A stretch of DNA of 64,000 nt from an uncultured Thiotrichales bacterium (GCA_964636225.1 CAZWQM010000005.1:40668-104667); one strand, 5' to 3'; counted from the first letter of the stretch, positions 1 to 64,000 are shown. Notes: generated by a model from the sequence alone, not told the origin. Made by a program: numbers and translations.

Positions 1-645
1 CGTCGCCGAAGTTGTAACCACTTCATCAAAAATTGTCACTTCTTCATAATCAATTTTTTTGACTAAGCTAAATGCATCGCGTACATTTTTTATGCGCTGC
101 ATTTTTGATTTACCGATTTGTGTCTCGGTATATCTCGTTCTTTGCAGGCAATTAAAATCATAATCAAAGTTTATGTATTTACTGTACAATCGGATTAGCT
201 CATACACAGCATTAAACCCCCTTTGCCTGATACGTGCAGGATGACTTGGAACCGGAATCACCAGGCTCGATGTACACACATCAAAAAATTGTTTTAACGA
301 TAGCTGGATTAACGTATGCGCATGCTCCCAGTGATTAAAGTACTTATAACCCGTAATGAGTTGATCGATAGGTGCTCGATACCAGAATGTAGCTTTGAGT
401 GAGACATAGAACGCAGGAAGAGCCTGACAGGCACCACATATTTTGATTTCACTTCGAGACGCCATAAGGGGTAATCCACAAACCACACATACCTGACTTT
501 CTGCGCACCAGGGAAGATATTGTTTACAGGGCGGACATATACCAAGCTGACCTTTATCGATGCTTCCACACAGGCAACACCCCCAAGGGTAAATTGACCT
601 GGTCAAGTTAGTCCCTAACTTGTAAAATTTACTGATGTTATTCAT
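1..645 (-). CDS. ComF/GntX-family protein (double zinc ribbon plus phosphoribosyltransferase domain); the C-terminus runs off the window start
   Basis: My manual minus-strand translation from the ATG at 643-645 is open to position 1. It gives MNNISKFYKLGTNLTRSIYPWGCCLCGS...PVPSHPARIRQRGFNAVYEL...RTRYTETQIGKSKMQRIKNVRDAF...FDEVVTTSAT. These are the CxxC pairs and PRTase motifs of the ComF family. The ORF-track call 309..569 is in a different frame. The gene diverges from bioB, as in many gammaproteobacteria. Confidence 0.7.
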   Translation of the reverse strand, partial: MNNISKFYKLGTNLTRSIYPWGCCLCGSIDKGQLGICPPCKQYLPWCAESQVCVVCGLPLMASRSEIKICGACQALPAFYVSLKATFWYRAPIDQLITGYKYFNHWEHAHTLIQLSLKQFFDVCTSSLVIPVPSHPARIRQRGFNAVYELIRLYSKYINFDYDFNCLQRTRYTETQIGKSKMQRIKNVRDAFSLVKKIDYEEVTIFDEVVTTSAT

Positions 646-653
646 TTGACAAG
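620..653. promoter_or_regulatory. Candidate BirA operator (bioO-like imperfect inverted repeat TTGTAAAA...TTTGACAA) in the comF/bioB divergent promoter region
   Basis: TTGTAAAA at 620-627 and TTTGACAA at 645-652 form an imperfect inverted repeat. It resembles the E. coli bioO half-sites TTGTAAACC/GGTTTACAA and lies about 40-70 bp upstream of the bioB start. Confidence 0.3.
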
Positions 654-691
654 TGCTATGAGGTGTTTAGACTCCGACATAAGTTTATTTT

Positions 692-1660
692 TTGAAGCGG
701 GCCCCAATGACCAAAAAGAAATGGAATAAAGATGAAATTCGTGAAATTTTCGCAAAGCCTTTCAATGACCTGCTATTTGAAGCGCAATCCGTTCATCGTA
801 AGCACCACAACCCAAATACCATTCAAGCTAGCACGCTGTTATCTATCAAAACAGGTGCCTGCCCTGAAGATTGTGCGTATTGCCCCCAGAGTGCGCGCTA
901 TGAGACTGGCCTGGAGCGCGAACGACTTCTGTCGTTGGAAGAAGTAAGAAACGCAGCACGTAATGCCAAACAACAGGGAGCTACACGTTTTTGTATGGGT
1001 GCCGCCTGGCGTAACCCCACGGATAAGAACCTTGAAACCGTTGTCGAAATGATTAAAGAAGTACAGGCTGAAAATCTTGAAACCTGCGTCACTTTAGGCA
1101 TGTTGACTGAAAAACAGTCTAATCGATTGGCGGAAGCTGGCCTGGATTTCTATAATCATAATATTGATACCTCGCCGGAATTTTATGGTGAAATCATTAC
1201 AACCCGGGACTATCAGGACAGGCTGGATACGTTAAGAAACGTTCGCGCCTCGGGCATTAATGTCTGTTCCGGTGGAATTCTTGGTATGGGTGAAAATCGC
1301 GAACAACGCATGGGCTTACTGATGGAGCTAGCGAATATGGATCCGCCTCCTGAATCCGTACCGATAAATCTGTTAGTGCAAATCGAAGGTACGCCTCTGT
1401 TTGGCACGGATGAACTGGATCCGATTGAGTTTGTACGCATGATCGCCGCTACTCGAATATTAATTCCGGAAACCTATATTCGCTTATCTGCTGGGCGAGA
1501 ATCCATGAACGATGCCATGCAGGCCCTGTGTTTTCACGCAGGAGCAAATTCTGTTTTCTTTGGTGAAAAATTATTAACCGCAGCAAATCCCGAAGTGGAA
1601 ACCGATACAAAACTTTTTGAACGCTTAGGCATAAGTCTTGAAGCACCTACCTGTCATTAG
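692..1660 (+). CDS. bioB: Biotin synthase
   Basis: 322 aa. It has the radical-SAM CxxxCxxC motif ([13 protein letters not shown]) and is globally similar to BioB. Confidence 0.95.
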
Positions 1661-1672
1661 CAATTTCAGGCT

Positions 1673-2836
1673 GTGGCCAATTCAATCTCTCAACAGCTAG
1701 CTGCATTAAAGCAACAGGGTGCGTACCGACACCGCCAGCCTCTACAAAGTCCGCAAGGTGTGGAGGTGCGGATCAATGAAAAATCCTTTATATCATTCTG
1801 TAGTAATGATTATTTAGGGCTGGCGAATGAGCCACGAGTGTGTCAAGCCGCGACTAAAGCGATATCCCAATTTGGCTTGGGCAGCGGCGCATCTCAGCTC
1901 ATCAGCGGCTATTCTTCTTTACATGTTTCTTTAGAAGAAAAACTGGCAGATTTTTTTGGGTATCAACGCTGCCTGCTGTTTTCATCCGGTTATCTGGCTA
2001 ACCTGGGTGTGATCTCGGCTTTCAGTACACGTCAAAGCTTAATTCTAGAAGACAAATTAAATCATGCCTCGCTGATTGATGCTGCAAGATATGCGGGCAG
2101 TCATTTAAAACGCTATCGACATCGCGATGTGAGTCATGCCAGTCAAATTATCGATTATAGTAAGCCCCATTCCTGCTTACTTGTCAGTGATGGTGTATTT
2201 AGCATGGAAGGCAGTATTGCTCCTTTGCAGCAACTGGCTCAATTAAAACGCAAGTTCACTGGAAAATTAATTATAGATGATGCCCACGGGATTGGGGTGC
2301 TTGGAGACCACGGAAAAGGATGCCTGGAAGATTGCGGGCTGGATCATAATGATATTGATATTCTAATTGGTACTTTTGGTAAATCGTTTGGCTGCAGTGG
2401 TGCATTTGTATTATCAGACCATGACCATATTGAATTCCTCATTCAAAAAGCACGAACATTAATTTATACCACCGCTCCTCCCGCAGCACTGGCGGCCGCT
2501 GCCATACTGAGTCTGGATATCATCCAACATGAACCGGAACGTCGTCTGCGATTACAAAACAATATTGACTATTTTCGCCAGGCCATGATCCCCACAAAGC
2601 TGAATTTACTTGATTCGCGTACGGCCATTCAGACAATTATTCTGGGTGAAAATGAACAGGCACTCTGGTTCAGCCAGCAGCTTGAAAACAAAGGTTTGCT
2701 TGTAATGGCGATTCGTCCCCCAACAGTTCCCAAGAATAGCGCCAGACTACGAATCACGTTATCGAGTGAACACAGTCATCATCAAATTGATTTGCTAATT
2801 AATGCATTGCTGGAAATTGAAACCAGTCTATTGTGA
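1673..2836 (+). CDS. bioF: 8-amino-7-oxononanoate synthase
   Basis: 387 aa PLP-dependent class-II aminotransferase fold with the GTFGKSFGCSGAF lysine motif. It sits directly downstream of bioB. GTG start. Confidence 0.9.
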   Translation: MANSISQQLAALKQQGAYRHRQPLQSPQGVEVRINEKSFISFCSNDYLGLANEPRVCQAATKAISQFGLGSGASQLISGYSSLHVSLEEKLADFFGYQRCLLFSSGYLANLGVISAFSTRQSLILEDKLNHASLIDAARYAGSHLKRYRHRDVSHASQIIDYSKPHSCLLVSDGVFSMEGSIAPLQQLAQLKRKFTGKLIIDDAHGIGVLGDHGKGCLEDCGLDHNDIDILIGTFGKSFGCSGAFVLSDHDHIEFLIQKARTLIYTTAPPAALAAAAILSLDIIQHEPERRLRLQNNIDYFRQAMIPTKLNLLDSRTAIQTIILGENEQALWFSQQLENKGLLVMAIRPPTVPKNSARLRITLSSEHSHHQIDLLINALLEIETSLL

Positions 2837-2844
2837 ATACTGAA

Positions 2845-3570
2845 TCACATAAGCCCATGTTCCGCCATAGAAAAGGTTTCTTCTCCAACAATGATGTGAT
2901 CTAGTACATGCACATCAATTAAGTTTAGTGCCTGATTTATTTTATGAGTAATCTATTTATCAGCTTCACTTGGCTGGTAGTTTCCCGAAGGATGATTGTG
3001 CGCAAGAATTACTTTCGCAGTATTGGTTCTTAACACCAACTTGACGATCTCACGGGGATACACACTTGCATTATTAATCCTGCCTTTAAACAATTCTTCA
3101 TAGCGGATTAACTGGTTCCGTGTATCCAGCAGCAAGCATGCAAATACCTACGAGGTGTAATCACGCATTTTCGATAATAAAAATCTTGCTGCCTGTTTTG
3201 AACTAGTGAATTCAGGTTTTGACTCCAGTTGTTGCATCAGACTACGCTGTGCAATCGTACTTATCGCTAAAATCTGAGTGAATTTTGCCGGCCCAAGCCC
3301 TTTGATAGCCCGTAATTGTTCACTCTCACATTTCAGCAGACCACGAATACCACCAAATTGATCCAGTAATTCCTGTGCCAGTTCAAGCACACTTTTTCCT
3401 GCCAGTCCGGTTCTTAAAATAATGGCCAAAAGCTCTGCATCGGATAATATCTCCGCACCCTCCTTAATGAGTCTCTCACAAGGGCCATTTTTTGTGACCA
3501 ATTTTGTTTCATTGACTATAAAAAACTGAAGTCGGGTACACGCCGAAAGGATTGATTCTGGTACACTCAT
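2845..3570 (-). pseudogene. radC: radC (JAB/MPN-domain DNA repair protein) interrupted by two in-frame TAG codons
   Basis: ORFs 3148..3570 and 2953..3135 are in the same frame. Reading through TAG (3148-3150) and TAG (2953-2955) gives continuous RadC-like sequence: ...[106 protein letters not shown]. The HNHPSG (JAMM) motif and C-terminal tail are conserved. Confidence 0.75.
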
Positions 3571-4808
3571 TTTCCATGAAACTTACAAACAAGCATATTC
3601 TTGTCGCCGTTACTGGTGGTATCGCTGCCTACAAGTCTGCCGAATTTGTTCGGGCGCTACAAAGGGCAGGTGCACAAGTGCGTGTAGTCATGACAGAAAG
3701 TGCGACAAAATTTGTCACGCCATTGACCTTTCAGGCCCTTTCAGGTTATCCGGTACATGCCGCCGATAATGGCCAGTTCGACAAGTCCGGCATGGACCAT
3801 ATCGCGCTTGCACGTTGGTCCGATGCCATCATTGTGGCGCCTGCCACCGCGAATATCATTGCTAAAATTAGTCACGGCGTTGCAGATAATTTTGTCAGTT
3901 CCCTGTGTCTTGCTCACCAGGGTCATTTAGCCGTAGCCCCCGCTATGAATCAGGCTATGTGGAAAAATATCGCCAGCCAGAACAATATTGCCGCGCTGAA
4001 AGAAAGAGGTATAAAAGTCTTTGGTCCCGCACAGGGTGTTCAGGCCTGTGGCGAAACAGGTGAAGGCAGAATGCTTGAACCCAATGATTTGACACAGCTG
4101 TGTATTTCATTATTTCCCAATCATTCCCTAACAGGTAAAAAAGTCGTGATTACAGCGGGCCCTACGCAGGAAGCGATCGACCCGGTGCGATTTATCAGTA
4201 ATCGTTCCTCAGGAAAAATGGGTTACGCAATTGCGCAAGCCGCACTGGAGGCCGGTGCCGATGTCACTGTGATTACCGGTCCTACCCATTTACACAAAAA
4301 TGATCGTATTCATTACGTGAATGTGGAATCTTCTCAGCAAATGCATGCTGCTACATTGGCTAATTGTGCAAATGCCGATTTATTTATTGCGGCAGCGGCA
4401 GTGGCAGACTACCGACCGAAAAATATTTCTATGCAAAAAGTTAAAAAACATGATGAAAATTTTTCACTAAAGCTCACTCGCACTGCAGATATTTTAAAAG
4501 ATGTGAAGCAGGCTTATGCCCGCCTTTTCTGTGTAGGCTTTGCTGCCGAAACAGAAAACATTATTGAAAACGCTTTAACAAAATTGCGTAATAAATCACT
4601 TAATATGATTATCGCCAATCAGGTAGGCCTGCCTGATCAGGGTTTTGACAGTGACTATAATGCTATTGAGATAATTACAGAGAATAGTGTGATATCAATT
4701 GGTCGTGCTCGCAAAGCAGAGCTAGCCCGACAAATAATCGAAAATATTTCTAAACAACTCAAACTGGATACACCCCAAACTAATGTCACTTACATCCAAC
4801 CCAAATAA
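3552..4808 (+). CDS. coaBC: Bifunctional phosphopantothenoylcysteine decarboxylase / phosphopantothenate-cysteine ligase
   Basis: 418 aa with a flavoprotein N-domain plus a CoaB domain. It is divergent from radC, matching the E. coli dfp-radC arrangement. The true start may be the internal [10 protein letters not shown]. Confidence 0.9.
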
Positions 4809-5256
4809 AATCAAACTTAAAATCTTGGACAGTCGGATAGGTAACGAATTTCCTATGCCAGGTTATGCTACCTGCGGTTCTGCAGGCTTGGATTTACAGG
4901 CCTGCATCGAACACACTTTGACCGTCAAAGCAGGGGAAACGCATCTTATTCCTACAGGCATCTCAATTTTTATAGATGACCCTTCCCTTGCAGCAGTTAT
5001 ACTCCCACGCTCTGGCTTAGGACATAAACATGGCATCGTACTGGGAAATCTGGTCGGACTTATTGATTCTGACTACCAGGGACCGTTAATGGTGTCCTTG
5101 TGGAATCGAGGAGATAAAGAATTCACAATAGAGCCCGGAGATCGTATGGCTCAGCTGGTGTTTGTTCCAGTTGTACAGGTAGACTTTGAAATCGTAGATG
5201 ACTTTGTAACGACCGATCGTGGACAAGGAGGCTTTGGCCACACGGGTCAAAAATAA
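4783..5256 (+). CDS. dut: dUTP diphosphatase
   Basis: 157 aa, near-identical in motifs to E. coli Dut ([26 protein letters not shown]). It lies downstream of coaBC, as in E. coli. Confidence 0.95.
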
Positions 5257-5287
5257 TAATGTTTATTAAGACTTTACGGAAAGAACA

Positions 5288-7548
<2,261 letters not shown>

Positions 7549-7651
7549 CTGCACGTTTTGTGAGTTCCTTGTAGCGTTCTATATCTTCACCAAACTTTTT
7601 ACGTAGCCGTTCTTTTTCAACCGCTTTGTCGTTGATGTATTCTTCGATTCC

Positions 7652-8164
7652 TCAAATGCGACTTAATACTTTAAGTTCGGTTGTATCAATCCACTCCGGG
7701 GGCTCCATATCCCGCTCTATGAATCGATTACGGCTTTCATTCAGCTTAGCCAGTTCCTGCTGCTGTTTACGCAGTCGTTCACGAGACATATTAATTGATT
7801 GTTCGATGAGGTTGATTCTTTCATCGCGTACTTCCAGAATCTGTTCGGGGCTATTAAAGGTAGCTAATAGAACACGGTCATAAGCATCCTGTTCTTCACG
7901 ACGCTGACGTTCCATTTTTGCTATACGCTGCTGCTCTTCATAGCGTTTTTGCTCTTCTGGTGATCGAGCAGGACTGACCTCTTCAACAACCTGTCCACTT
8001 TCATCCAGCAAGCTACGCCCCGAATTGACTTCCTCGGCGGGCACCTGGTCACCATACTGGGTGTTGCCATTTTTATCTTTCCAGCGGAAATATTCTGCCG
8101 ACACCAAACCGCTCCACGTCATGGCGCAAATCATTAAAACAATTGTGGTTTTGTATCGTCGCAT
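7652..8164 (-). CDS. DUF4124-domain periplasmic protein with a charged coiled-coil region
   Basis: It has a signal peptide and the FRWKDKNGNTQYGDQ motif typical of DUF4124. The middle is rich in E/R/Q. Confidence 0.6.
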   Translation of the reverse strand: MRRYKTTIVLMICAMTWSGLVSAEYFRWKDKNGNTQYGDQVPAEEVNSGRSLLDESGQVVEEVSPARSPEEQKRYEEQQRIAKMERQRREEQDAYDRVLLATFNSPEQILEVRDERINLIEQSINMSRERLRKQQQELAKLNESRNRFIERDMEPPEWIDTTELKVLSRI

Positions 8165-9736: not shown

Positions 9737-9739
9737 CGT

Positions 9740-11104
9740 ATGAATAGCTGGGCACAGTCATTTCAAATATATCTACACCCAAAAATGCTCGCCATGCTCG
9801 TATTGGGTTTTTCTGCTGGATTACCTTTGCTGCTGGTGTTTGGTACACTTTCTTTCTGGCTACGCAAGGAGGGGATTGATAGAAGCACTATTGGTTATAT
9901 TTCCTGGGTGGCCGCCTTATACGGCGTTAAATTTTTATGGTCTCCTCTGGTTGATAGATTACCTCTACCCTTGTTATCGAAATATATGGGGCAACGACGC
10001 AGCTGGATGTTCATCGCCCAGCTTGGCGTACTATCAGGCTTATTGCTGCTAGGGACAGTTAATCCTCAGGACCAACTATCGCAATTAGTCATATTTGCTT
10101 TATTGGTCGCTTTTTTTTCGGCTACACAAGACATTGCTCTAGATGCCTGGCGTATCGAATCTGCACCCAGCGAAGAACAGGGCGCCATGGCCGGGACTTA
10201 TCAATTGGGCTATCGCTTAGGCATGTTATTGGCCGGAGGCGGGGCTTTTTCGCTTGCACATTTTTATAGCTGGAATACTGCCTATACTGTTATGGGCTTT
10301 AGCATGCTGACAGGGTTAATTACTACTTTGATTGTATCTGAACCCCTACGATGCGGATCTACACAGACGGCTACACAAGAATCCGCCGTGATTAATTTTC
10401 TTCAGTGCTCTACCACGCTTCCAAAACCTTTACGCAATAGTGTTGCCTGGTTTTTGGCTGCCGTTGTTTGTCCATTTACTGATTTCTTTAAACGTAATGG
10501 TATCTTTTCAATTGTTATTCTACTGTTTATCGGCACTTTCAGATTAAGCGACATTACCATGGGTGTGATGTCCGGGCCATTTTATGCAGATATGGGTTAC
10601 AGTGAACTGCAGGTAGGTTTGATCTCAAAAACATTTGGCATTGGTGTCACTATCGCAGGCGCCTTGCTCGGCGGCGTGCTGGTCATGCGTTGGGGGATTT
10701 TAAAAGTATTATTGATTGCGGGTATATTAGTCGTTGTTACAAATCTCGTATTTGTCTGGCTTGCTACCCAGGAACCTAAAACCTGGCTTCTTGCGATTGT
10801 CATCACTGCCGATAATTTAAGCGGTGGTATTGCCGGGACTGTATTTATTGCCTACCTCTCAAGCTTGACCAATAAAATATATACGGCCACTCAATATGCA
10901 CTACTAAGTTCAATCATGCTGCTACCTGCAAAATTTTTAGGCGGTTTTTCAGGAAAAATTGTTGACGATTATGGCTATATTAACTTTTTCATTTATGCTG
11001 CCTGCTTAGGATTGCCTGCCATACTTCTTGCGCTTTATCTCGCAACTCGCAAAAGCATAAGCAGTCTTAGCTTCGATAAGCCAACCTCTCAGGAGCTTAA
11101 ATAA
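9740..11104 (+). CDS. MFS transporter, AmpG-family muropeptide permease-like
   Basis: 454 aa with multiple transmembrane segments and AmpG-like N-terminal motifs (GLPLLLVFGTLSFWLRKEGIDRSTIG). Confidence 0.75.
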   Translation: MNSWAQSFQIYLHPKMLAMLVLGFSAGLPLLLVFGTLSFWLRKEGIDRSTIGYISWVAALYGVKFLWSPLVDRLPLPLLSKYMGQRRSWMFIAQLGVLSGLLLLGTVNPQDQLSQLVIFALLVAFFSATQDIALDAWRIESAPSEEQGAMAGTYQLGYRLGMLLAGGGAFSLAHFYSWNTAYTVMGFSMLTGLITTLIVSEPLRCGSTQTATQESAVINFLQCSTTLPKPLRNSVAWFLAAVVCPFTDFFKRNGIFSIVILLFIGTFRLSDITMGVMSGPFYADMGYSELQVGLISKTFGIGVTIAGALLGGVLVMRWGILKVLLIAGILVVVTNLVFVWLATQEPKTWLLAIVITADNLSGGIAGTVFIAYLSSLTNKIYTATQYALLSSIMLLPAKFLGGFSGKIVDDYGYINFFIYAACLGLPAILLALYLATRKSISSLSFDKPTSQELK

Positions 11105-11861
11105 TGTTTGGCTTTATTCACAAAAAATTTTATTTCTCTTTATTTATCGTTCTAAGTTTACTTTTTTTTATAGCCTGACGCCCGTTTATGCTGGCTGGTT
11201 TGATAAAATCAAAGATGTCATCAATTCAGAATCATCAAGCTCTACGTCAAGTACATCCCTCACTGACAATGAAATTGCGGATGCATTAAAAGAAGCGCTC
11301 AGTGTAGGTTCCAGTAATGTAGTCAGTCAGCTTAGTGCTCCAGGTGGATTTAATCTGGATTCAAATATACATATTCCTTTACCGGAATCGTTGCAAACTG
11401 TGCAGAAAACTATGAACAAATTCGGCATGGGAAGCTCGTTAAACAATCTTGAAAACAAATTGAACGAAGCAGCCGAAATCCCCACCGAAAAAGCTAAACC
11501 TTTATTTCTAGATGCGATTAAGCAAATGACGTGGAGTGATGTAAAATCTATTTTGAATGGACCGGATGATGCAGCGACTCAATATTTCAAGGGGAAAATG
11601 TCATCACCTTTAACCGCCGAAATGTAGCCCATAGTAGACAACAGTTTGAGCGAAGTAGGCTCAATTAATACATATAATGATGTTATGGGTAAATATAAAT
11701 CTTTGCCTTTGGTGCCGGATGTTCAGGCAGATTTGAGTCAGCATGTTTTAAGCAAAGGTATCGATGGAATATTCTATTATCTGGCCAAAGAGGAAAAAGC
11801 AATTAGAGATAATCCGGCTAAAAGAACAACCGATTTATTGAAAAAAGTTTTTGCAAAATAG
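11104..11861 (+). pseudogene. DUF4197-family periplasmic protein, disrupted by a frameshift at a T8 tract and an in-frame TAG
   Basis: The ATG at 11104 encodes a signal-peptide-like MFGFIHKKFYFSLFIVLSLLFFIA and then stops. The next frame continues from the T8 run (11162-11169) as ...YSLTPVYAGW...DNEIADALKEALSVGSSNVVSQL..., which is DUF4197-like. This runs into ORFs 11391..11627 and 11646..11861, which share a frame and are split only by TAG at 11625-11627 (...PLTAEM*PIVDNSLSEVGS...). Confidence 0.65.
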
Positions 11862-21146: not shown

Positions 21147-21281
21147 GTGAAAAGGACGTTTCAACCAAGTAATTTACGCCGTGCACGTACGCATGGGTTT
21201 AGAGCACGCATGAAAACACGTGGTGGACGTGCGGTTATTCGAGCGCGACGCGCACGTGGTAGAGCCCGTCTTTGTCCATAA
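21147..21281 (+). CDS. rpmH: 50S ribosomal protein L34
   Basis: It is not in the ORF track because it has a GTG start. Translation gives [44 protein letters not shown]. Confidence 0.9.
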
Positions 21282-39674: not shown

Positions 39675-39751
39675 TTCTACCAGTTTACATTTGATTTATT
39701 CGCTCAACCTCTAATGAAAAATTTTTAACCAGACAAGAAAGCGATAAACAT

Positions 39752-41185
39752 ATGTCGATAGGAAAAGAAGTCTCCAGTTCTATTCGATGGATGGCCGGCA
39801 TGCGAATGGTCAGCCAGGTGTTCACTTGGGCAGCCACATTAATTGTCATAAGATTATTGTCGCCCGAGGATTATGGCCTTATGACTCTGGCTGCCGTAGT
39901 AATTGGCTTACTGGATATTCTTGATGACATGGGCCTCGCTTCAACGCTTGTCCAAAAAAAGCAGACATCTGATGAATTTGTGCGGCAAATTTTTGGAATG
40001 CTTTTCATCTTTAACACTGGCTTTTATGTATTGCTGTTTGTCACTGCGCCATGGGTGGCAGATTTCTTTGGTGATGAACGATTATCCGTGATCATTCAAA
40101 TACTAGGTCTGCAGACAATAATTCGTATTTTTTTCTATATACCTAATGCCATCATGCGCAGAAACATGCAGTTTAAATCTGTGTCGTTGATTAAATTTAG
40201 CGCTGTTGTTACACAAAGTATGACAATACTTCTGTTTGCTTATTTAGGTCACGGTGTATGGTCTTTGGTGTACGGCGGTCTTGTCTATACTGGTGTGCAA
40301 ACTATAGGAGCCATGCTGGCATCTAATTATTTTCGCCGGCCAAGTTTTTCCTTTTAAGGTATCGGAGAGGCTTTAAGTTTTGGCGGGTTAATTACAGTTC
40401 ATCGTTTTATGTTTTATTTCTACCATGCGATAGGTTCGGTAATTCTGGGTAAGGTAGATGGACAAAAAGCACTGGGCTACTACTCGGTTGCTATGCAAAT
40501 TGCCCATTTACCCATGGAGAAATTTATGATGATTCTGAATGAAGTGGGTTTCTCGGCTTTTTCAACTATTCAGGATAATCAGAAAAAAATGAATGAATTG
40601 TTATGCAAGGCGGTACGCTTGCTGGGAGTGGTGGTATTTCCTGTATTTATGGGTATTTCGTGTACTTCTCCTGAACTGGTTGCGGTGTTATTAGGCGATA
40701 AATGGACTCCCGTCGCAATACCGTTGCAGATTGTCAGTGCAGTGATGGCACTTAAAATGATGAACATCACTGATCCATTATTATTTGCCATGGGTCGCCC
40801 CGATGTTGGAGTTAAAGCGCTGGCTATAGGATGTGTCATTATGCCAATAGCATTTTACATCGGTTCACACTGGGGTGTTCTGGGCATGTCGATATCATGG
40901 CTGATAGCCTATCCTCCGTATTTTTATATATCCATGAAGATTGTGTTAGCGACTATCGGCATGAAATTCAGTACCTACTTACGTGAATTTACATTCCCGG
41001 CAATTTTCAGCGGTGTTATGTATATCATGGTCATTATCGCCAGAGAGGTGATTAGTCCACATGTTGGAAACACAGCACTGGAATTAGTAATGCTGATATT
41101 TGTAGGCGCAGTAACCTATACAGTACTGGTACTGGCTTTTCAACGTGACATCGTCAAACAACTATATGTGATGGTAAGACATTAA
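39752..41185 (+). pseudogene. Wzx-like oligosaccharide flippase (MOP/PST family) interrupted by one in-frame TAA
   Basis: ORFs 39752..40357 and 40409..41185 are in the same frame (offset 657 = 3x219). Reading through TAA at 40355-40357 gives ...NYFRRPSFSF*GIGEALSFGGLITVHRFMFYFYHAIGSVILGKVDGQKALGYYSVAM..., a contiguous PST-family flippase of about 478 aa. The stop sits where homologues have K in ...F(S/L)KGIGE. Confidence 0.7.
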
Positions 41186-41333
41186 AACAATGTGTGTGAC
41201 GCGCTAAATGTAGGCATCGAAATGACAATGCAGTGCATAGCTTAAAAAACAACCCCTTCACTTTAGGAAACAATTAAAAAGTAGTATAAGTTAAGTCAGC
41301 AAAGTTTCATTTGCAGTGTAAAAGGAGCACTTG

Positions 41334-41621
41334 TTGGCCAAGCGACCGGAAATAGAAGATGAAGAAATTCAGGAATGGGTACAGGCGCTACATGATGTGC
41401 TGGAGCTTCACAAAATAAAATAGCCGGTTTCGTTGGCGATATGTTAAAAGTCAAAGTTAAAGCCCCAGCAAGAGAGGGTAAAGCCAATTTGGCGGTGATA
41501 GATTTATTATCGCTGGAATATAAAGTGCCAAAAAATAACATTTCGCTGATATCGGGCACGACATCAAACTTAAAAATAGTAGAAATTAAAGAAGGTCAGG
41601 CTAAAGATAAAAGGCTATGAT
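41334..41621 (+). pseudogene. YggU/DUF167-family remnant (frameshifted or internally deleted)
   Basis: Frame 1 gives (L)AKRPEIEDEEIQEWVQALHDVLELHKIK*. Frame 3 continues IAGFVGDMLKVKVKAPAREGKANLAVIDLLSLEYKVPKNNISLISGTTSNLKIVEIKEGQ*, matching the DUF167 core (G.HGD.LKV.V.APP.EGKAN). The frames switch at about 41415-41425 and several N-terminal core residues are missing. Confidence 0.45.
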
Positions 41622-43389: not shown

Positions 43390-43803
43390 GTGATTATAGC
43401 AAGGGAATTTAATAAAGATATTGTACCTAAAAAACTGACAGATTTACGCGCACCTGTGAAAGATCGAGCCAACCTGTTAGTAGATTTAACAGTGATGTCT
43501 CGCCAGGTAGGTTACTCAATAAGTAAAAAAGTATCCCGCTTTGGAGTGAATTATAATTTATGGCAGGTTTTGGTGACATTATGGAGCGAACATGCTGTGA
43601 CACCGGCTGCGGTTGCTCAATATCTTCAGGTCGAGCCTGCGACAATCAGCCGTTATCTGGATCAGCTTGAGTCTTTGGGTTACATCACACGCGAAAGAAG
43701 TAAAGTGGACCGGCGAGTAGTAGATGTTATTTTGACAACCAATGGTAATAAGGTTGTTAAAGCCGGCTTAAATGAACTCGACGAACTTGGCAAATATTTA
43801 TAA
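43390..43803 (+). CDS. MarR-family transcriptional regulator
   Basis: 137 aa winged helix (ATISRYLDQLESLGYITRERSKVDRR). It is divergent from thiO. Confidence 0.75.
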   Translation: MIIAREFNKDIVPKKLTDLRAPVKDRANLLVDLTVMSRQVGYSISKKVSRFGVNYNLWQVLVTLWSEHAVTPAAVAQYLQVEPATISRYLDQLESLGYITRERSKVDRRVVDVILTTNGNKVVKAGLNELDELGKYL

Positions 43804-44009
43804 CAAATTCAGATTTACATCTCCCTGCAACATGTGAAAGCCTTCCGCTTGAGTTTATCTTGGCGGCAGGACCTTTCATTTTCTATAGAGTTTGGCTGGA
43901 TATCTGCCATGGATATTAGCTTATTGCGATGTAATTAAGGTTTTTTGTATCAGACACTGGATATAATTGAGCACAGGTTTATCTCGTTTATTCCAGAAAA
44001 TGCAAGCAA

Positions 44010-44738
44010 ATGCTTTTTGGTTATCCTTCGGCACTGAGACGCATCGCTAAGTTCGCACATGATCATGCCATGGATTTAACACAAGTTGGAGTGAAAGTCG
44101 TTTTCGTAACTTCTGAATATCTTTATCCAGAGCAGCGTGAGTTGATACAAGACTGCTTTGGTTGTCCGGTTGCCAATGGTTATGGTGGCCGAGATGCAGG
44201 ATTTATCGCGCATGAGTGCCCATCAAAAAACATGCACATTACCGCAGAAGATATTATTGTTGAAATAATTGATCCGCAAGGCCAACCGGTTAAAACAGGC
44301 GAGTCCGGTGAAATTGTGGTGACGCATCTGGCAACAAGGGGGTATCCGTTTATACGCTACCGTACCGGGGATATAGGCATACTGGATGATAAACAATGTG
44401 AATGTGGACGGGGGCTGCCAATTTTAAAAGAAATACAAGGACGCACAACGGATTTTGTCGTTAGCCAAAACGGCAATGTGATGCACGGTTTGGCGTTGAT
44501 CTATGTATTGCGAGAAATAACCAGCATTCAAGAATTCAAAATTATTCAGGAAAGTAAAGACAGCACACGAATTTATTTAATTGTAGACAATGCCTTTAGT
44601 TCAGAGGATAAATATAAGATTGTCCAGGGATTCAAAACCCGCTTGGGTGAGCAGGTGGATATCATTATTGAATGCGTGGATACGATCCCCGCTGAAAAAT
44701 CTGGCAAGTTCAGGTATGTGATTAGTCATGCTATCTAA
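44010..44738 (+). pseudogene. 3' fragment (C-terminal ~240 aa) of a phenylacetate-CoA ligase / CapK / F390-synthetase-family adenylate-forming enzyme
   Basis: It contains the C-terminal subdomain motifs (YRTGDIG...GR..D). The expected ~200 aa N-terminal adenylation half is absent. Upstream there is only 206 bp of non-coding DNA and an in-frame TGA 45 bp before the ATG. Confidence 0.55.
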
Positions 44739-48524: not shown

Positions 48525-49557
48525 ATGGGTATGAAATATAAATCATTAGGCAATACAAATCTAAGTGTCAGCAAAATATGCCTGGGCACAATGACTTTCG
48601 GTGAACAGAACACCGAGGCTCAGGCACATCAGCAACTCGACTATGCAATCACGCATGGAGTCAATTTTATTGATACTGCTGAGATGTATCCGGTGCCTCC
48701 ACGCCAACAAACCCAAGGTGCCACCGAAGCCTTTATCGGAAGCTGGTTGCATAAACGCCAATGCAGAGAAAAAGTCATTTTAGCCAGCAAAGTAGCTGGC
48801 CCTGGGATGGATGATGGAGTATTTGCGTAATGGCGCTCAATTGGTGCGAAGCCAAATGGAACAGGCGTTGCACGAAAGCCTTTTGCGCCTGCAAACCGAT
48901 TATATTGATCTTTACCAGATCCATTGGCCTGCACGTAATACTAATTTCTTTAGTAAGCTGGGTTATCAATATGATGAATCTGAATCCACTCCGATTGAAG
49001 AAACGCTGTCGGTACTTAATGATTTTGTTAACTCAGGTAAAGTACGTTACATTGGAATATCCAATGAAACTCCATGGGGTGTGAAAGAATATTTGAGGCT
49101 TTCAGAGCAGCGCCAATGGGCGCGAATTATTTCAATTCAAAACCCCTATAGCCTGCTCAATCGAACTTTTGAAGTCGGTCTGGCAGAATTTGCACACAGA
49201 GAATGCGTTGAGTTGCTGGCCTATTCCCCTCTAGGTTTTGGTGTGCTCACAGGGAAATATTTGAGAAACATTAATCTGAGTAAAGCACGCTTGAGTGTAT
49301 TTGAGGGTTATACGCGCTACAGTAATGAACAGGCAAAAAAAGCCACTGCAGCCTATGTTCAACTCGCGGATGACCACGGCTTGTCCGCTACACAAATGGC
49401 TTTGGCTTATGTGAATAGTCGGCCCTTTGTGGCAGCCAATATTATTGGTGCTACGTCCATTCAACAACTAGAAGAAAATATTCAGAGTGCAGAACTTGAG
49501 TTGTCAGCTGAGGTGCTTGAAGAAATTCACCGTAAAATTCCCAATCCTAGCCCTTAA
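48525..49557 (+). pseudogene. Tas-like NADP-dependent aldo/keto reductase, frameshifted
   Basis: ORF 48525..48830 (N-terminus, like E. coli Tas) and ORF 48811..49557 (the rest) are in different frames. The switch maps to the tandem GATGGATGATGG at 48806-48817. Deleting one GATG gives ...KVAGPGMMEYLRNGAQ... contiguous with the Tas alignment. Confidence 0.7.
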
Positions 49558-53787: not shown

Positions 53788-54467
53788 GTCGTTTCGTGTT
53801 GATTTTATGAAAAGCCGAGATTGTACCGCGTAAAAGCATGAATACGAGTATTTTTTCTGAATAGTCGTTAGTCTGAACGTAAAAATCCGGTTCTGTCATA
53901 CGAGTGTTTTAGGATCTGCCTGTAGACATCCATGTCCTGGCAGATTTCATCCTGAAACAAAAGATCATCCGTGAAATCTCAAGTCATTCGCCTAATTTAC
54001 CTTCCCTGATAAATTACGCTCTCCCTGAGCTTGAGTCTTGACTTCATTATTCCTTATACACTGCCCTAAAGTTGAACATTCTGTTTAACACTCTAGGTTG
54101 GGGCATCCTTGCCGAAGTACTGCTGGACTGAATTCCAATGAAGATTTCATTGTAAAGTCACGGCATGCATACACGAATGAAAGCACAGCAAGGGCTATGC
54201 CAATTTTGAATTGGTTGGTCTTCTGTATCTTGTTAACTAATTGATAAAATTAAAAATATAGATAACGAAAGGCTAAATTCAGAAGATAAACGTGTTATTG
54301 TAATCGTTTGTATTTGGGGGAGAAGCCAATCACGTTTAGCCATTTACTGACGCTATTTGACAATTTGTGGCGCTATAGATGACAGCGTGGGCAATTTACT
54401 TTATAAGAGCACTGCTTGGGAGCAAAAATTGTTTTTAGTTATTGCGGGGCAATAAATATGTTCATAA

Positions 54468-54515
54468 TGCACCAAATATGTGCAAAATAATCTATAAATG
54501 CACAAAATTTGTGCA
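54468..54515 (+). promoter_or_regulatory. Two tandem NtrC (NRI) enhancer-like sites upstream of glnA
   Basis: TGCACCAAATATGTGCA (54468-54484) and TGCACAAAATTTGTGCA (54499-54515) both fit TGCACC-N5-GGTGCA-type dyads. Their centres are 31 bp apart, at about -126 and -95 from the predicted start. This matches the E. coli glnAp2 geometry. Confidence 0.55.
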
Positions 54516-54575
54516 TATCTGGCTGTTTACTTGTGGTGCAAGATGCTAACTATTTGAATTCCCTGCCTGATTATG

Positions 54576-54592
54576 TGGCACATATCATGCTT
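54576..54592 (+). promoter_or_regulatory. Sigma-54 (-24/-12) promoter of glnA
   Basis: TGGCACatatcaTGCTT has GG (54577-78) and GC (54589-90) separated by exactly 10 nt. It lies about 85 bp upstream of the glnA ATG. Confidence 0.6.
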
Positions 54593-54674
54593 AACACCGG
54601 TCACAATACAAAACAAGAATAAACTCGGCCTAATTACTGGGTATTCAAATTTTTTAAATAATAGGAGTTTCTAA

Positions 54675-56140: not shown

Positions 56141-56158
56141 GCAATCATTAATAAATTT

Positions 56159-56731: not shown

Positions 56732-56752
56732 AAATTCCTTTCCATTCGCTTT

Positions 56753-57953: not shown

Positions 57954-58000
57954 AACAGAAAAAATGATTAACAAAGATAAAACGTACAGAGAAATAAATA

Positions 58001-59425: not shown

Positions 59426-59438
59426 TAATATTGAGTAG

Positions 59439-60377
59439 CTAATTTAGACTTAGGCTGCCGACCAGCTCAGATATATGTGAAAGTTGATGCTCATTTAAGT
59501 AATCACATAAGATCTGATTAATGCTGGCACAAATCAGTGGGTCATAATAAAGGCCGGTTCCGATACCCACCGCACTGGCACCCGCAATGATAAATTCCAG
59601 TGCATCTTCTCCGCTGGCAACGCCTCCCTGACCGATGATAGGGATATTATGGTTTTTACACACCTGATAAACCTGATGGACTTTTAATAGCGCAATAGGT
59701 TTTATTGCAGGACCGGATAAGCCGCCCTGATTATTTCCAATCACGGGCTTGCGTGAATGAATATCAATCGCCATTCCCATTAAGGTATTAATCACCGCAA
59801 ACGCGTCGGTTCCTGCTTCAATACAACGCCTGGCGTTATACGCAATATCTGTCTGATTGGGCGATAATTTGGTAATTAAGGGTTTATCGGTCACCTTTCG
59901 ACATGCCGCAACCACGCGTGCAGACATATCTGGGTCATTACCAAAGGCAACGCCGCCCTCTTTTACGTTGGGGCAGGAGATGTTTATTTCTATGGCATCA
60001 ATTGGTGAGTCATCAAAGATACGCGTGACTTCAGAATATTCTTCCAGAGTGGAACCGGAGACATTAGCGATATAACGTGTCTCACTGAAATCGAGTTTAG
60101 GCAGATAATCTTTAACCACTGTTCTGACGCCGGGATTTTGCAAGCCGATAGCATTCAGCATTCCAGCCGGAGTTTCATATACGCGATGTGCCGGATTGCC
60201 CAATCGGTTTTCAAGTGTGGTACCTTTTAAACAAATCGCGCCGATTTCCTGATTAGAATATCCCGCCACGCGCGTGTATTCTTGCCCGAAGCCAACACAA
60301 CCTGAAAGTAATACCAGAGGTGTCTGAAAATCCAGACCGCAAAACTTACTATGTAATAGTTGATATTTAGAATCCAT
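59439..60377 (-). CDS. Class-1 dihydroorotate dehydrogenase-family flavoprotein (PyrD-1B / dihydropyrimidine-dehydrogenase-like catalytic subunit)
   Basis: 312 aa TIM-barrel oxidoreductase with LLSGCVGFGQEY and a catalytic Cys in NISCPNV. Confidence 0.75.
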   Translation of the reverse strand: MDSKYQLLHSKFCGLDFQTPLVLLSGCVGFGQEYTRVAGYSNQEIGAICLKGTTLENRLGNPAHRVYETPAGMLNAIGLQNPGVRTVVKDYLPKLDFSETRYIANVSGSTLEEYSEVTRIFDDSPIDAIEINISCPNVKEGGVAFGNDPDMSARVVAACRKVTDKPLITKLSPNQTDIAYNARRCIEAGTDAFAVINTLMGMAIDIHSRKPVIGNNQGGLSGPAIKPIALLKVHQVYQVCKNHNIPIIGQGGVASGEDALEFIIAGASAVGIGTGLYYDPLICASINQILCDYLNEHQLSHISELVGSLSLN

Positions 60378-60840
60378 GTTTCATGTCATTTTATACGAGC
60401 CGGAAATCCCGCCCAATACCGGGAATATTATGCGTTTATGCGCCAACAGTGGTTGTCAATTGCACTTGATTCATCCGTTGGGATTTGAGCTGGATGACAA
60501 ACGCATGCGGCGGGCTGGGTTAGATTATATAGATAAGAGCATAGTACAAGAATATCCAGATTATCCTAGTTGCATGGAAAAAATATCCGCCAAGCGAATA
60601 TTTGCTTGTTCGACCAAGGGTAAAAAAAATTATAGTGATATAAAGTATCAGCCAGGTGATGCACTGTTATTTGGTCCTGAAACACGTGGACTTCCAGTAA
60701 ATGTACTTAACAGCTTTGAAAAAGATCATATACTGCGTGTGCCCATGCTTGAAAACAGCCGTAGTATTAATTTATCCAATACTGTTTCCATCTTTGTCTA
60801 TGAGGCCTGGCGACAAAATGATTATATCGGAGCAGTTTAA
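60376..60840 (+). CDS. trmL: tRNA (cytidine34/5-carboxymethylaminomethyluridine34-2'-O)-methyltransferase TrmL
   Basis: 154 aa SPOUT family. The N-terminus MFHVILYEPEIPPNTGNIMRLCAN matches E. coli TrmL. Confidence 0.9.
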   Translation: MFHVILYEPEIPPNTGNIMRLCANSGCQLHLIHPLGFELDDKRMRRAGLDYIDKSIVQEYPDYPSCMEKISAKRIFACSTKGKKNYSDIKYQPGDALLFGPETRGLPVNVLNSFEKDHILRVPMLENSRSINLSNTVSIFVYEAWRQNDYIGAV

Positions 60841-61850
60841 TCAACTTCGTTTTTGAGTGATCGGGATATCAGATATTCAACTGCTTCTCGTGCCGGCTTA
60901 CCATTGTATAAAACTTCATACACCTGATGGCTTATAGGTAACTCAATGCCTAGTCGGTGTGCCAGATCGTAGACGACTTTGGCCGCGTATTTACCCTCAA
61001 TGACTTGACCTATCTCCTGTTCTACTTGTGCAAGGGATTTGCCACTGCCAATGCCCAGACCAAAGCGACGATTACGCGACAGATTTTCTGTACAGGTTAA
61101 TACAATATCACCTAGGCCGGACAGGCCGGAGAAAGTCTGAGTGTGCGCTCCAAGCTTTCTGCCCAAACGAATCATTTCTGCCATGCCTCGTGTGATTAAG
61201 GCAGCACGTGCATTAGCGCCAAACTGCAAGCCGTCACTGATACCGGTGGCAATCGCAAGTATATTTTTAAAAGTACCTCCAATTTCTACACCGGTTACAT
61301 CAGTACTAATATAAGTACGAAATAAACTGTCATGAAATAATCGCGCGGCCTTGCGTGCAAAAGCGGTGTGTTTGGATGCAACTGTAACGGCAGTCGGTAA
61401 ACCCTTACCCACTTCTTGAGCAAACGAAGGTCCGGATAAGATGGCATTGTTTATGCCGCTTCTTAATTCCTCCTCTGCTATCTGATGTAAAAATTTACCA
61501 CTGCCCTGTTCCAGACCTTTGCAAGCCCAGATAATGCCTTGCAGATTTTCACTGGCATTTGAGTTGATACGTTGCATCATCTCCCGCATGGTAAGACTGG
61601 GAACAGCCACTATGATGAAATCACTGGTTTGAACAAGCCGGGAAAAATCTACACAGGGAATAATATTGTCTGACAACATCGCGCCCGGCAGGTAACGAGA
61701 GTTTTCCTTTTGTGAAATTACTTTCTGTAGTGCCTGCGTATTTCTGCCCCAAAGCTGAATTTGCGGGTGTAGTTTGGCTAGATGTATGGCTAGTGCCGTT
61801 CCCCATGCGCCGGCTCCGAGTACGCCGATTGAAGAAGGCTTGTTGCTCAT
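60837..61850 (-). CDS. gpsA: NAD(P)H-dependent glycerol-3-phosphate dehydrogenase
   Basis: 337 aa with an N-terminal GAGAWGTALA Rossmann fold. Confidence 0.93.
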   Translation of the reverse strand: MSNKPSSIGVLGAGAWGTALAIHLAKLHPQIQLWGRNTQALQKVISQKENSRYLPGAMLSDNIIPCVDFSRLVQTSDFIIVAVPSLTMREMMQRINSNASENLQGIIWACKGLEQGSGKFLHQIAEEELRSGINNAILSGPSFAQEVGKGLPTAVTVASKHTAFARKAARLFHDSLFRTYISTDVTGVEIGGTFKNILAIATGISDGLQFGANARAALITRGMAEMIRLGRKLGAHTQTFSGLSGLGDIVLTCTENLSRNRRFGLGIGSGKSLAQVEQEIGQVIEGKYAAKVVYDLAHRLGIELPISHQVYEVLYNGKPAREAVEYLISRSLKNEVD

Positions 61851-61895
61851 CTAAGTAATTTCAGTCTGACTTCAGCACTAATCTGCGGGAAATCA

Positions 61896-62360
61896 TCAGT
61901 GCTTGGTGCTTTTACCAGTCGCTTGCAACTGTTCTTTTTGCTGTGCCATTTGCTGGGCATACAGCGCATCAAAATTGACTGGGGATAATAACAATGGAGG
62001 GAACCCGCCTTTGCTGATTAACTCGGCAACGGCTTCACGTGCAAATGGAAACAGGGTATGCGGGCAATAACTGCCAAGCAAATGATTGCGTTGTTCTTCA
62101 GGAAAGTCTTTAATCAAAAATACACCCGACTGTTTTAATTCAACTAAAAACGCCGTTTTTTCATTTTGTTTTGATGTCACACTTACATTAAGAGTGACTT
62201 CGTATAACTCGTCAGTAAGTTTTATGTTTTGTGATGTCAGATGAATATCTGTTTTAGGCTGCCATTTTTCACGAAATACTTCAGGGCTGTTGGGAGACTC
62301 AAAAGAAACATCTTTTAAAAAGATTTTTTGAATCTCAAATCTTTGCTCGGTGTCTGCCAT
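61896..62360 (-). CDS. secB: Protein-export chaperone SecB
   Basis: 154 aa, conserved. It sits in the grxC-secB-gpsA cluster, as in E. coli. Confidence 0.9.
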   Translation of the reverse strand: MADTEQRFEIQKIFLKDVSFESPNSPEVFREKWQPKTDIHLTSQNIKLTDELYEVTLNVSVTSKQNEKTAFLVELKQSGVFLIKDFPEEQRNHLLGSYCPHTLFPFAREAVAELISKGGFPPLLLSPVNFDALYAQQMAQQKEQLQATGKSTKH

Positions 62361-62403
62361 GGGAAAATATTAAAGAATGTAGTTGGAAGATTGATGTGTG
62401 AAT

Positions 62404-62667
62404 TTATTCTAGGCCCAGCATGCCATTAAGTTTGCCTTCCCGATTAAGTTCTGCCAGGTCATCAAAACCACCTACATGTGTGTCGCCGATGAAGATTTGC
62501 GGAATACTGGTGCGCCCACTGAGCCGTTCCATTTCTTCACGTATGGAAGGATCATTATCAACTAATATTTCTCGGTATTTAACGCCTTTATTGTCAAGTA
62601 ATCTTTTGGCTGCATTACAATATGAGCATAAACGTCCGCTATACACCTTGATGTCTGGAGTCTTCAT
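62404..62667 (-). CDS. grxC: Glutaredoxin 3
   Basis: CSYC active site. The likely start is the internal MKTPDIKVY, 11 codons into the ORF-track call. Confidence 0.85.
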   Translation of the reverse strand: MKTPDIKVYSGRLCSYCNAAKRLLDNKGVKYREILVDNDPSIREEMERLSGRTSIPQIFIGDTHVGGFDDLAELNREGKLNGMLGLE

Positions 62668-63089
62668 TATTTCACCACTGGTAGGTTGGCAGATTTCCAT
62701 CCTTCAAGGCCGCCTTTAAGGTTCATCACGTTAGTAAAATTATGTTTTTTCAAAATTTCACAGGCGGAAGATGAACGATTTCCGCTTTTACATAGCGTAA
62801 TGACGGGTTGATCTGCATAGGCTTTTAGTTCATCTACACGTTGTTTTAGCACACTTAAAGCCAGATGTTTTGAACCGCGGATTGAGCCCTGAGCGAGTTC
62901 ATTGCTCTCTCGCACATCAATAATAACTGCATTCTCTTTATTGATTAACTGTACTGCTTCAGCGGGGGAGATATCTTTGAAGCCTCGTGTAGCACGTTTT
63001 ATCTCCATACGCACTATAAGCATAAGGATAACGCCAAGCGCAACAAACAAAATAAAATTATTAGTAAAAAATTCAGATTCAGGAGTCAT
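62667..63089 (-). CDS. Rhodanese-domain protein (YibN-like) with an N-terminal transmembrane segment
   Basis: 140 aa with an active-site CKSGNRS. Confidence 0.8.
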   Translation of the reverse strand: MTPESEFFTNNFILFVALGVILMLIVRMEIKRATRGFKDISPAEAVQLINKENAVIIDVRESNELAQGSIRGSKHLALSVLKQRVDELKAYADQPVITLCKSGNRSSSACEILKKHNFTNVMNLKGGLEGWKSANLPVVK

Positions 63090-63151
63090 AAGCTAGCGGC
63101 CCGGGATTCAGCGGGCTGTCATTATACAAATTAATGAATCGTATTCTATCT

Positions 63152-63499
63152 TTAATGTGTTGAGCAGAAGACGTATTGCATCATTTCTATAAGCTTTAAA
63201 GTGCGTTCATCACCGACTTTATAAAATACCCGGTTAGCGTCTTTTCGCGACTTCAAAATGCCTTTGTCACGTAGAATGGCAAGATGCTGTGAAATGTTGC
63301 TTTGAGAGGTGCCCACATTTTCAACGATTTCTTGTACGCTGACTTCTTGATCGCCAAGTACACACAGTATCTTTAGGCGTAATGGATGAGACATAGCCTT
63401 CAATGAACGCGAGGCTCTTTCTATATCATCCTCTTTTGCCATGAGGTCTGAGCGATTGAGTGGCACAAAGCCGGTTTCAGTCATTTTATTCGCTTCCAT
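63152..63499 (-). CDS. ArsR/SmtB-family transcriptional regulator
   Basis: Helix-turn-helix (VQEIVENVGTSQSNISQHLAILRDKGIL). It is adjacent to the rhodanese gene. Confidence 0.75.
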   Translation of the reverse strand: MEANKMTETGFVPLNRSDLMAKEDDIERASRSLKAMSHPLRLKILCVLGDQEVSVQEIVENVGTSQSNISQHLAILRDKGILKSRKDANRVFYKVGDERTLKLIEMMQYVFCSTH

Positions 63500-63581
63500 T
63501 CATATCCTAATAAATTAATAATGGCATTATCGAATATTCTAAACCATTAATACGACAATAATAGTCGGGAATTTGTCTGTT

Positions 63582-64000
63582 GAATAGCCTTTTCCTTTAT
63601 TTTTATGACAATCGCGGTAAGCAAATATTCCGTGCAATAGAAGCTACTTGTTTAATATTCAGTCTAACTGGTTTGTTTGTGGCGCATGCCGAAGAAGGAC
63701 TGAGCGACACTCAGGCACAGCTTGACAGAGTTACAAAAATTGTTGAACAGATTGAAAGTAACCTTGCAAAAAACATTAAAAATCAAGATCTTGTACGTAA
63801 GGAAATGGATCAGCTTGAGCGTGAACTGGGCAAGCTGCATGCGCAAATAAAAGCCACTGAAAACAGTATCTCGCAGGGTCAGAAGCGCGAAAAACAGCTG
63901 CAGAATGAAAAAGCTCGCCTGGATCAGGATTTGGCCGACCAGGGTATACTATTCAAACAGCTGGTACGGGTTGCCTATGGTGCTCAGGACCAGAGTAAAT
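63582..64000 (+). CDS. envC: Murein hydrolase activator EnvC-like (coiled coil / M23 family), 5' part only; start codon uncertain (TTG?)
   Basis: My manual translation gives a signal peptide ...IFSLTGLFVAHA, then EEGLSDTQAQLDRVTKIVEQIESNLAKNIKNQDLVRKEMDQLERELGKLHAQIKATENSISQGQKREKQLQNEKARLDQDLADQ... running to the window end. This is the EnvC N-terminal coiled coil. Confidence 0.55.

Follow-up and report, generated by a model that had tools for sequence, protein, structure and literature searches.

Fresh gene decay near the replication origin in an uncultured marine gammaproteobacterium

Early genome erosion is a well-known phenomenon. In Serratia symbiotica (PMC3056288) and Burkholderia mallei (PMC2877748) many genes that are intact in free-living relatives carry recent nonsense, frameshift, or deletion lesions, including strain-specific ones, and the recognisable pseudogenes are later deleted. 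The same features are found in the DNA dealt with here, 64,000 nucleotides from an uncultured Thiotrichales bacterium (GCA_964636225.1 CAZWQM010000005.1:40668-104667), below called the window. It is a gene-dense stretch with a G+C content of 43.2%, surrounding the replication origin of a gammaproteobacterium, in which radC, wzx, tas, capK, aceE–aceF, and genes of the DUF4124, DUF4197, and DUF167 families are broken. Unlike the two described cases, the window shows neither mobile-element expansion nor A+T enrichment, its density of broken genes, about 12%, is a local value only, and the clade of its lineage has otherwise been recorded from blooms of plankton, from a sponge, and from the culture of an alga.

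The luminous symbionts of ceratioid anglerfish are also marine gammaproteobacteria that reduce their genomes and have free-living relatives; transposon proliferation is reported as the driving force there (PMC6020299), whereas the window bears point mutations, slippage events, and deletions, and no repeats. Pseudogenes as such belong to the background of bacterial genomes: they account for 1-5% in most prokaryotes (Liu et al. 2004 as summarised in PMC11078800), and lesions of the same kinds affect dispensable genes of the same kinds as here. The window departs from the background so described in a several-fold higher density and in that the affected genes are core syntenic ones, not mainly transposases or members of paralogous families.

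The window gives good support for fresh gene decay through point mutation, slippage, and deletion, and very likely dispensable genes are being inactivated, and then deleted, in a marine lineage related to the order UBA4575. Decay, as opposed to recoding, had already been proposed from the nucleotide sequence of the window considered by itself (the sequence-only reading), and the proposal is borne out by the use of stop codons, by the mixture of lesion types, and by the neutral evolution of the broken genes.

Strains, relatives, and the reality of the lesions

Contigs assembled separately from SRR15213105, SRR15213107, and SRR15213108 are 99.9-100% identical to the window and carry the same lesions. 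A sister strain, with 99.2-99.6% identity, is present in SRR15927517/18/27, SRR24791495, and several ERZ assemblies. Common to both strains are a TAG at codon 141 of radC, the TAG of the DUF4197 gene, a duplication in tas, the 5' truncation of capK, and a deletion in dprA, which lies outside the window. The window strain has as its private hits a TAG at codon 206 of radC, the TGA in the DUF4124 gene, the TAA in wzx, a larger loss of capK, and a 9-nt deletion in tas, and the sister strain insertions of +1 in both radC and marR, a -1 deletion affecting the DUF4197 gene, a TAG in capK, a nonsense codon in comF, and the loss of the segment 39677-41536. Decay is still in progress, as seen in a circulating intact wzx allele, in the removal of wzx and the adjoining remnant from the sister strain, and in second hits private to one strain or the other.

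Errors of sequencing or assembly in a metagenome-assembled genome (MAG) would be the most trivial source of such lesions, and the length of a homopolymer and a short duplication, both found here, are error-prone kinds of lesion. In a long-read contig of one relative (L114 from ERZ25072490, of very low coverage according to its label, 2.84x, and with the closest DUF4197 homologue, 81% identical) ampG and ykuD are split, probably by errors and not as pseudogenes. The lesions of the window, however, recur in short-read assemblies made separately from several runs, of different accession series, most of them are substitutions or kilobase deletions, and the pattern of shared and private ones fits a history of two strains, so that error is very improbable as their source. 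The split genes of the MAG are of biological origin, and its annotation should give them as pseudogenes.

The broken genes were further characterised by comparing the window with the sister strain over 29.4 kb. Intact genes differ by 59 synonymous and 45 nonsynonymous changes, which corresponds to 0.0112 differences per synonymous site (pS), 0.0025 per nonsynonymous site (pN), and a pN/pS of 0.22. The broken genes differ by 4 synonymous and 21 nonsynonymous changes (pN/pS about 1.5), a contrast significant in spite of the small counts (Fisher p = 2.7e-4), and they accumulated six indel events in 3.9 kb, against a single event in the 23.3 kb of intact genes (p = 5e-5). Small as the counts are, the contrast is clear, and between the two strains the evolution of the broken genes is neutral. 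The transition:transversion ratio between the strains is 88:63 and the mutation spectrum has no distinctive feature. G>T changes account for three of the four polarisable nonsense mutations of the window strain, as is to be expected, since a single G>T step turns Glu and Gly codons into stops.

The ancestral state of the region can be read from contigs of relatives, which are co-linear with the window. Three of them, from Tara Oceans and JGI (L111-L113), cover bioB to dnaA, two (L115, L116) marR to pyrD, and two (L117, L118) glmU to capK including aceE–aceF. Intact orthologues of radC, the DUF4124 and DUF4197 genes, wzx, aceE–aceF, capK, and tas occupy the same syntenic positions there; only the DUF167 gene has no counterpart, other small open reading frames (ORFs) being found in its place. 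When repaired DUF4197, repaired Tas, and ThiO were used as queries, many homologues of 60-83% identity were returned, of which the closest full-length ones have the normal length of their families. The broken genes are 72-82% identical to their orthologues, which is within the 60-94% range of their intact neighbours, so the inactivation is recent relative to the split of the lineages and the genes have spent most of their history under constraint.

One of the relatives, Padam54 (JAWPMW), has a circular genome of 2,402,513 bp with 38.95% G+C, comes from a red-alga culture, and was assigned by GTDB-Tk to the order and family UBA4575 and the genus UBA1858 (PMC10793256). The order UBA4575 comprises bloom-associated marine bacteria with signs of methylotrophy (PMC8371827), and one MAG of this order originates from a sponge (PMC8941161). 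Judging from protein identities of 60-94% and from the gene order, the organism of the window probably belongs in or next to this order.

Broken genes at conserved positions

Lesions were checked by six-frame translation and codon-level inspection, and conceptual translations bridging them were compared with Pfam. The bridged translations match their Pfam families across the lesions, so the stops and shifts fall inside conserved domains. Four of the broken genes are single genes at conserved positions:

2845-3570, minus strand: radC pseudogene, with in-frame TAG codons at 3148-3150 (codon 141) and 2953-2955 (codon 206)
7535-8164, minus strand: DUF4124 gene, with a TGA at 7652-7654 followed by 38 sense codons
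11104-11861, plus strand: DUF4197 pseudogene, interrupted by a T8 run at 11162-11169 and, in frame, by a TAG at 11625-11627
48525-49557, plus strand: pseudogene of the aldo-keto reductase tas, in which a tandem duplication of GATG at 48806-48813 shifts the frame by +1

Both TAG codons that had been reported in radC were located, and both lie within the JAB domain, whose profile is covered in full (1-121 of 121) by the bridged translation, 72% identical to an intact 222-aa orthologue. Codon 141, the site of the shared stop, is a Glu codon in homologues, while codon 206, the site of the private one, is CAG in the sister strain, which has its own +1 insertion at 3487. The DUF4124 lesion, suspected before, proved to be real. 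The TGA is private to the window strain, the sister strain having GGA, and it removes 38 C-terminal residues that are kept in homologues, including more distant ones; compared with a 189-aa orthologue, the protein is 80% identical over the full length.

The DUF4197 gene carries the two lesions already ascribed to it, a T8 run in the signal-peptide region, where T9 is required for the frame, and a TAG at a site with Lys or Arg in 13 of 13 homologues. Its bridged translation covers positions 2-199 of the 199-position profile, and intact proteins of syntenic relatives have 246 aa. The sister strain shares the TAG, has T7 or T8 in the run, and shows a 1-nt deletion at 11292; the T8/TAG stretch is covered by window and sister-strain contigs only. 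The frameshift noticed earlier in tas turned out to be the GATG duplication, common to both strains, at a site where relatives read GPGMMDY; the private 9-nt deletion of the window strain is at approximately 49516. Here the bridged translation covers positions 1-288 of the 291 of Aldo_ket_red, and the closest full-length homologues among those listed, syntenic orthologues included, have 343 aa.

Three of the nonsense codons had been said to replace Lys or Glu codons, and this holds for radC codon 141 (Glu), wzx (GAA), and the DUF4197 gene (Lys or Arg, as above); according to the sister strain, the remaining two replace CAG (radC codon 206) and GGA (DUF4124). Function could in principle be preserved by readthrough of stops, reassignment of codons, programmed frameshifting, or phase variation. 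In the window TAG accounts for three of the five stops in frame, although only 7 of 58 intact genes end with it, and the sister-strain capK has an additional one, numbers too small to interpret; the T-run of the DUF4197 gene varies between T7 and T8 among assemblies. Against this, intact genes end normally, with TAA in 43, TGA in 8, and TAG in 7 of 58 cases, and have normal lengths. All three stop types occur in frame, only in genes with other damage (frameshifts, deletions, strain-specific indels) and in no essential gene, and the broken genes evolve neutrally. As to phase variation, the in-frame T9 allele was not seen, relatives do not have the T-run, and the gene bears the shared downstream TAG and the sister-strain frameshift. 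Scans across the whole 64-kb window gave no tRNA gene and no Rfam match, so neither a suppressor tRNA nor a recoding element can be invoked from it. Preserved function by any of these routes is accordingly scarcely credible.

A ninth broken gene, dprA, is located approximately 9 kb upstream of the window (L109, L108, 1080-1545). In both strains two pieces of it are left, in different frames, an N-terminal one that matches the DprA N-terminal domain weakly and below threshold, and a C-terminal one of the winged-helix type; the central DprA domain is missing. The comF gene (1-640, minus strand), which runs off the start of the window, is an intact 239-codon ORF in the window strain, although Pfam recognises only its zinc-ribbon domain and leaves the phosphoribosyltransferase part undetected; in the sister strain it has a stop 20 codons before the end, and contig L110 adds a frameshift.

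Two sites of variable gene content

The remaining lesions lie at two sites, one between glmS and fur and the other between marR and thiS, whose gene content is not the same in the two strains and the sister species:

39752-41185, plus strand: wzx-type polysaccharide flippase pseudogene, with an in-frame TAA at 40355-40357
41322-41405, plus strand: aceE remnant, codons 5-32 of pyruvate dehydrogenase E1, start codon lost
41396-41620, plus strand: DUF167/yggU gene reduced to a 3' fragment (profile positions 11-76 of 76), without a start codon, and with a TGA at 41393-41395
43849-44007, no strand: unique 159-nt filler in place of 536 nt of capK 5' sequence kept in the sister strain
44010-44738, plus strand: remnant of a capK-like ligase gene, residues 216-458 of a 458-aa protein, about 242 codons

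At the first site the relatives L117 and L118 have the order glmS, wzx, aceE (886-894 aa), aceF (418-422 aa), three small ORFs, and fur, with wzx directly after glmS intact and coding for 478 aa. The bridged translation of the window wzx covers positions 1-291 of the 293 of Polysacc_synt_3. Its TAA, recognised in the sequence-only reading, was confirmed by an intact 477-aa allele from the sample ERZ27296344, which is 99.6% identical at the DNA level and has GAA at this site. The first 45 nt of the contig with the intact allele (L107) are unlike the glmS 3' end found upstream of the window wzx, which could reflect a different arrangement or an end effect of assembly. The 39677-41536 loss of the sister strain takes out wzx and the aceE stub completely, and all of the DUF167 fragment but approximately its last 25 codons.

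The interval 41322-41405 encodes KEHLLAKRPEIEDEEIQEWVQALHDVLE, 82% identical over 28 aa to residues 5-32 of AceE of L117. Nucleotide homology to both L117 and L118 runs through the wzx–aceE spacer and ends at approximately 41406, and the DUF167 fragment, starting at 41396 in a different frame, is fused to the stub. Taken together, these observations show that a single deletion joined the first approximately 32 codons of aceE to the interior of the DUF167 gene, removing the rest of aceE and all of aceF. A yggU/DUF167 gene disrupted by a frameshift or deletion had been described here; the deletion remnant is real, while its supposed 5' part was rejected as such, its frame being that of AceE. The aceE/aceF loss is the eighth lesion of the window and was not in the earlier list.

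At the second site the ancestral order, seen in relatives, is marR, GT4, asnB-like, GT4, capK (458 aa), thiS. The window has lost the GT4–asnB–GT4 genes upstream of capK and the 5' half of capK, so the ligase is indeed cut to its 3' half, as had been claimed, and its bridged translation matches the C-terminal part of the profile only. The filler at 43849-44007 marks one junction of a deletion or replacement. The capK remnant of the sister strain, likewise truncated at the 5' end, is longer; it bears a TAG not found in the window strain, joined in some contigs by a frameshift. In a sister species, represented by a 5.9-kb contig of the MAG HER19_SLT_250_bin_64_1 (L009; ThiG 90% identical, broken genes at 600-3000), capK has two in-frame stops at positions unlike those of the sister strain, and a divergently oriented polysaccharide-deacetylase-like gene beside it has one. 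An apparent truncation of sulP in the same contig was rejected, since the reading frame continues to the contig end.

From glmS to thiS the distance is 15.5 kb in L117, against 5.2 kb in the window and 3.85 kb in its sister strain, which, together with the lost central domain of dprA, indicates a net loss of DNA relative to the relatives. Filler sequence is present at both variable junctions, the 159 nt at 43849-44007 and approximately 155 nt in contig L092 (155-309); the fillers match neither the other strain nor any of the relatives fetched. Metagenome contigs of both strains often break at the two junctions. The neighbouring marR (43390-43803) is 89% identical to its 137-aa relatives in the window, and in the sister strain has a 1-nt insertion at 43427 (approximately codon 13), the gene being called 10 codons shorter.

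According to the most likely mechanism, first hits arise by ordinary mutation, namely the substitutions GAG>TAG, GAA>TAA, AAG>TAG, CAG>TAG, and GGA>TGA, the change in length of a T-run by slippage, the tandem duplication of 4 nt, and multi-kilobase deletions, one taking aceE–aceF and another GT4–asnB–GT4 with the 5' half of capK. The inactivated genes would then drift neutrally, acquire further stops and indels, and finally be lost by deletion of the remnant.

Density of lesions, selection, and the remaining genes

The eight broken loci make up roughly 12% of the approximately 69 gene slots of the window, and pseudogene remnants 5.6 kb, or 8.7% of its bases; with dprA there are nine in the approximately 82 kb of one genome region that were read (the window and approximately 18 kb beyond). 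The high density of fresh lesions put forward in the sequence-only reading was slightly understated, all seven genes of its list having been found broken and an eighth added. At a background of 3% the binomial tail for eight broken slots is approximately 9e-4, and at one pseudogene per 25 kb the Poisson tail for at least eight is approximately 0.005.

These values can be set against the view that real pseudogenes cluster here by chance with two flexible polysaccharide sites in a genome of ordinary pseudogene load. Gene turnover at variable polysaccharide loci is common among free-living bacteria, and four of the affected loci, those of wzx, the aceE/DUF167 remnant, and capK, do lie at the two strain- and species-variable sites downstream of glmS and between marR and thiS. 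However, radC, the DUF4197 gene, tas, the DUF4124 gene, and dprA are single core genes at conserved positions, intact in every relative examined, and comF, marR, capK, and the deacetylase-like gene bear independent lesions in the sister strain or sister species. Eight of approximately 69 slots is moreover improbable at a background of 1-5%, and local turnover is considered a rather unlikely explanation.

The functions hit do not look random, which fits several of them having become dispensable in the lineage. The losses include competence-associated DNA processing (radC, dprA outside the window, and comF in the sister strain), surface polysaccharide (wzx and the GT4–asnB–GT4–capK cluster), and pyruvate dehydrogenase E1/E2 (aceE–aceF) at its ancestral site. 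The genes comF, dprA, and radC belong to the competence regulon of H. influenzae, which is conserved across gammaproteobacteria (PMC1635313). This grouping by function, together with the independent damage to capK in three lineages, is what would be expected if inactivation were itself selected, for example for phage escape or cost saving, an explanation compatible with that of dispensable genes. Yet tas, the DUF4197 and DUF167 genes, and the DUF4124 tail have no evident common function, they and aceEF are unrelated to the two groups, and the alleles are polymorphic and not fixed, the intact wzx being still in circulation. Adaptive loss therefore appears rather unlikely too.

We infer that selection has been relaxed genome-wide, through a new dependence on a host or partner or through a small population, and not merely that genes turn over locally; host restriction or a small population is a plausible cause. 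Several observations weigh against so broad a reading, part of which are equally those expected from local turnover. Only approximately 82 kb of one region is covered, the density thus being local, four of the affected loci fall at the two variable sites, and the 8.4 kb read downstream of the window contains no broken gene. Two classical hallmarks of recent host restriction, expansion of insertion sequences (IS) or repeats and an A+T shift, are absent from the window. No IS, miniature inverted-repeat transposable element, or repeat family of at least 30 nt was found in the 64 kb except for one 34-nt chance pair, nor any inverted repeats. The G+C content of 43.2% compares with 38.3-43.2% at the syntenic loci of relatives, and that of third codon positions in gyrB is 0.364 in the window and 0.352 in a relative. 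The pN/pS of 0.22 of intact genes is ordinary for such close strains and is not diagnostic of population size. Even truncated, the DUF4124 protein retains the one domain recognised in it and may be functional, and a second copy of aceE–aceF could exist elsewhere in the genome.

It is possible, though doubtful, that the organism is a hitherto unrecognised member of UBA4575, recently made dependent on a host or partner and seen in the earliest phase of genome reduction, ahead of any IS expansion or A+T drift, which has already lost pyruvate dehydrogenase E1/E2, surface polysaccharide, and DNA uptake, and of which at least three co-existing variants record successive steps. If the density holds genome-wide, the lineage would show in nature, with the alleles still polymorphic, how genome reduction begins in the ocean, in a clade otherwise known as free-living, bloom-associated methylotrophs. 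Since intact, broken, and deleted alleles occur together in public metagenomes, the order and rate of loss, and the shares of drift and selection, could then be measured directly instead of being deduced from end states. If there is no other copy of aceE–aceF, their loss at the ancestral site would point to a specific metabolic dependence.

The remaining 61 genes of the window have ordinary lengths and align over their full length wherever orthologues are at hand, in agreement with the earlier statement that the core and housekeeping genes, put at roughly 65, are whole. The gene order, broken genes included, is as follows:

comF, bioB, bioF, radC, coaBC, dut, pmm, argB, DUF4124, pyrE
xthA, ampG, DUF4197, ykuD, a parA-like gene, xth, an SH3 gene
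gyrB, recF, dnaN, dnaA, rpmH, rnpA, yidD, yidC, mnmE, mnmG, rsmG, parA, parB
atpIBEFHAGDC, glmU, glmS, wzx, a short remnant, fur, thiO, marR, capK
thiS, thiG, trmB, sulP, tas, plsC, gmhB, glyS, glyQ, glnA
a second DUF4124 gene, ntrB, ntrC, pyrD, trmL, gpsA, secB, grxC, rhodanese, arsR, envC

Two further candidates for decay were rejected. The rpmH gene (21147-21281) has not lost its start codon; it starts with GTG, as in the Tara relative L112. The 887-bp spacer between glyQ and glnA (53788-54674) gave no ORF, no Rfam match, and no tblastx match to any of the loci fetched, and has eight changes between the strains, approximately the neutral rate; the corresponding spacer of relatives is 859-943 bp long, and this similarity in length shows it to be ancestral and not an eroded gene. 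The AmpG protein of the window (ampG, 9740-11104) is only 37-40% identical to AmpG encoded at the same position in L111-L114, where neighbouring genes reach approximately 80%, and shares 48-53% with its counterparts in more distant gammaproteobacteria (L011, L024, L044), so that ampG could have been replaced by a foreign copy or could have diverged fast in the relatives.

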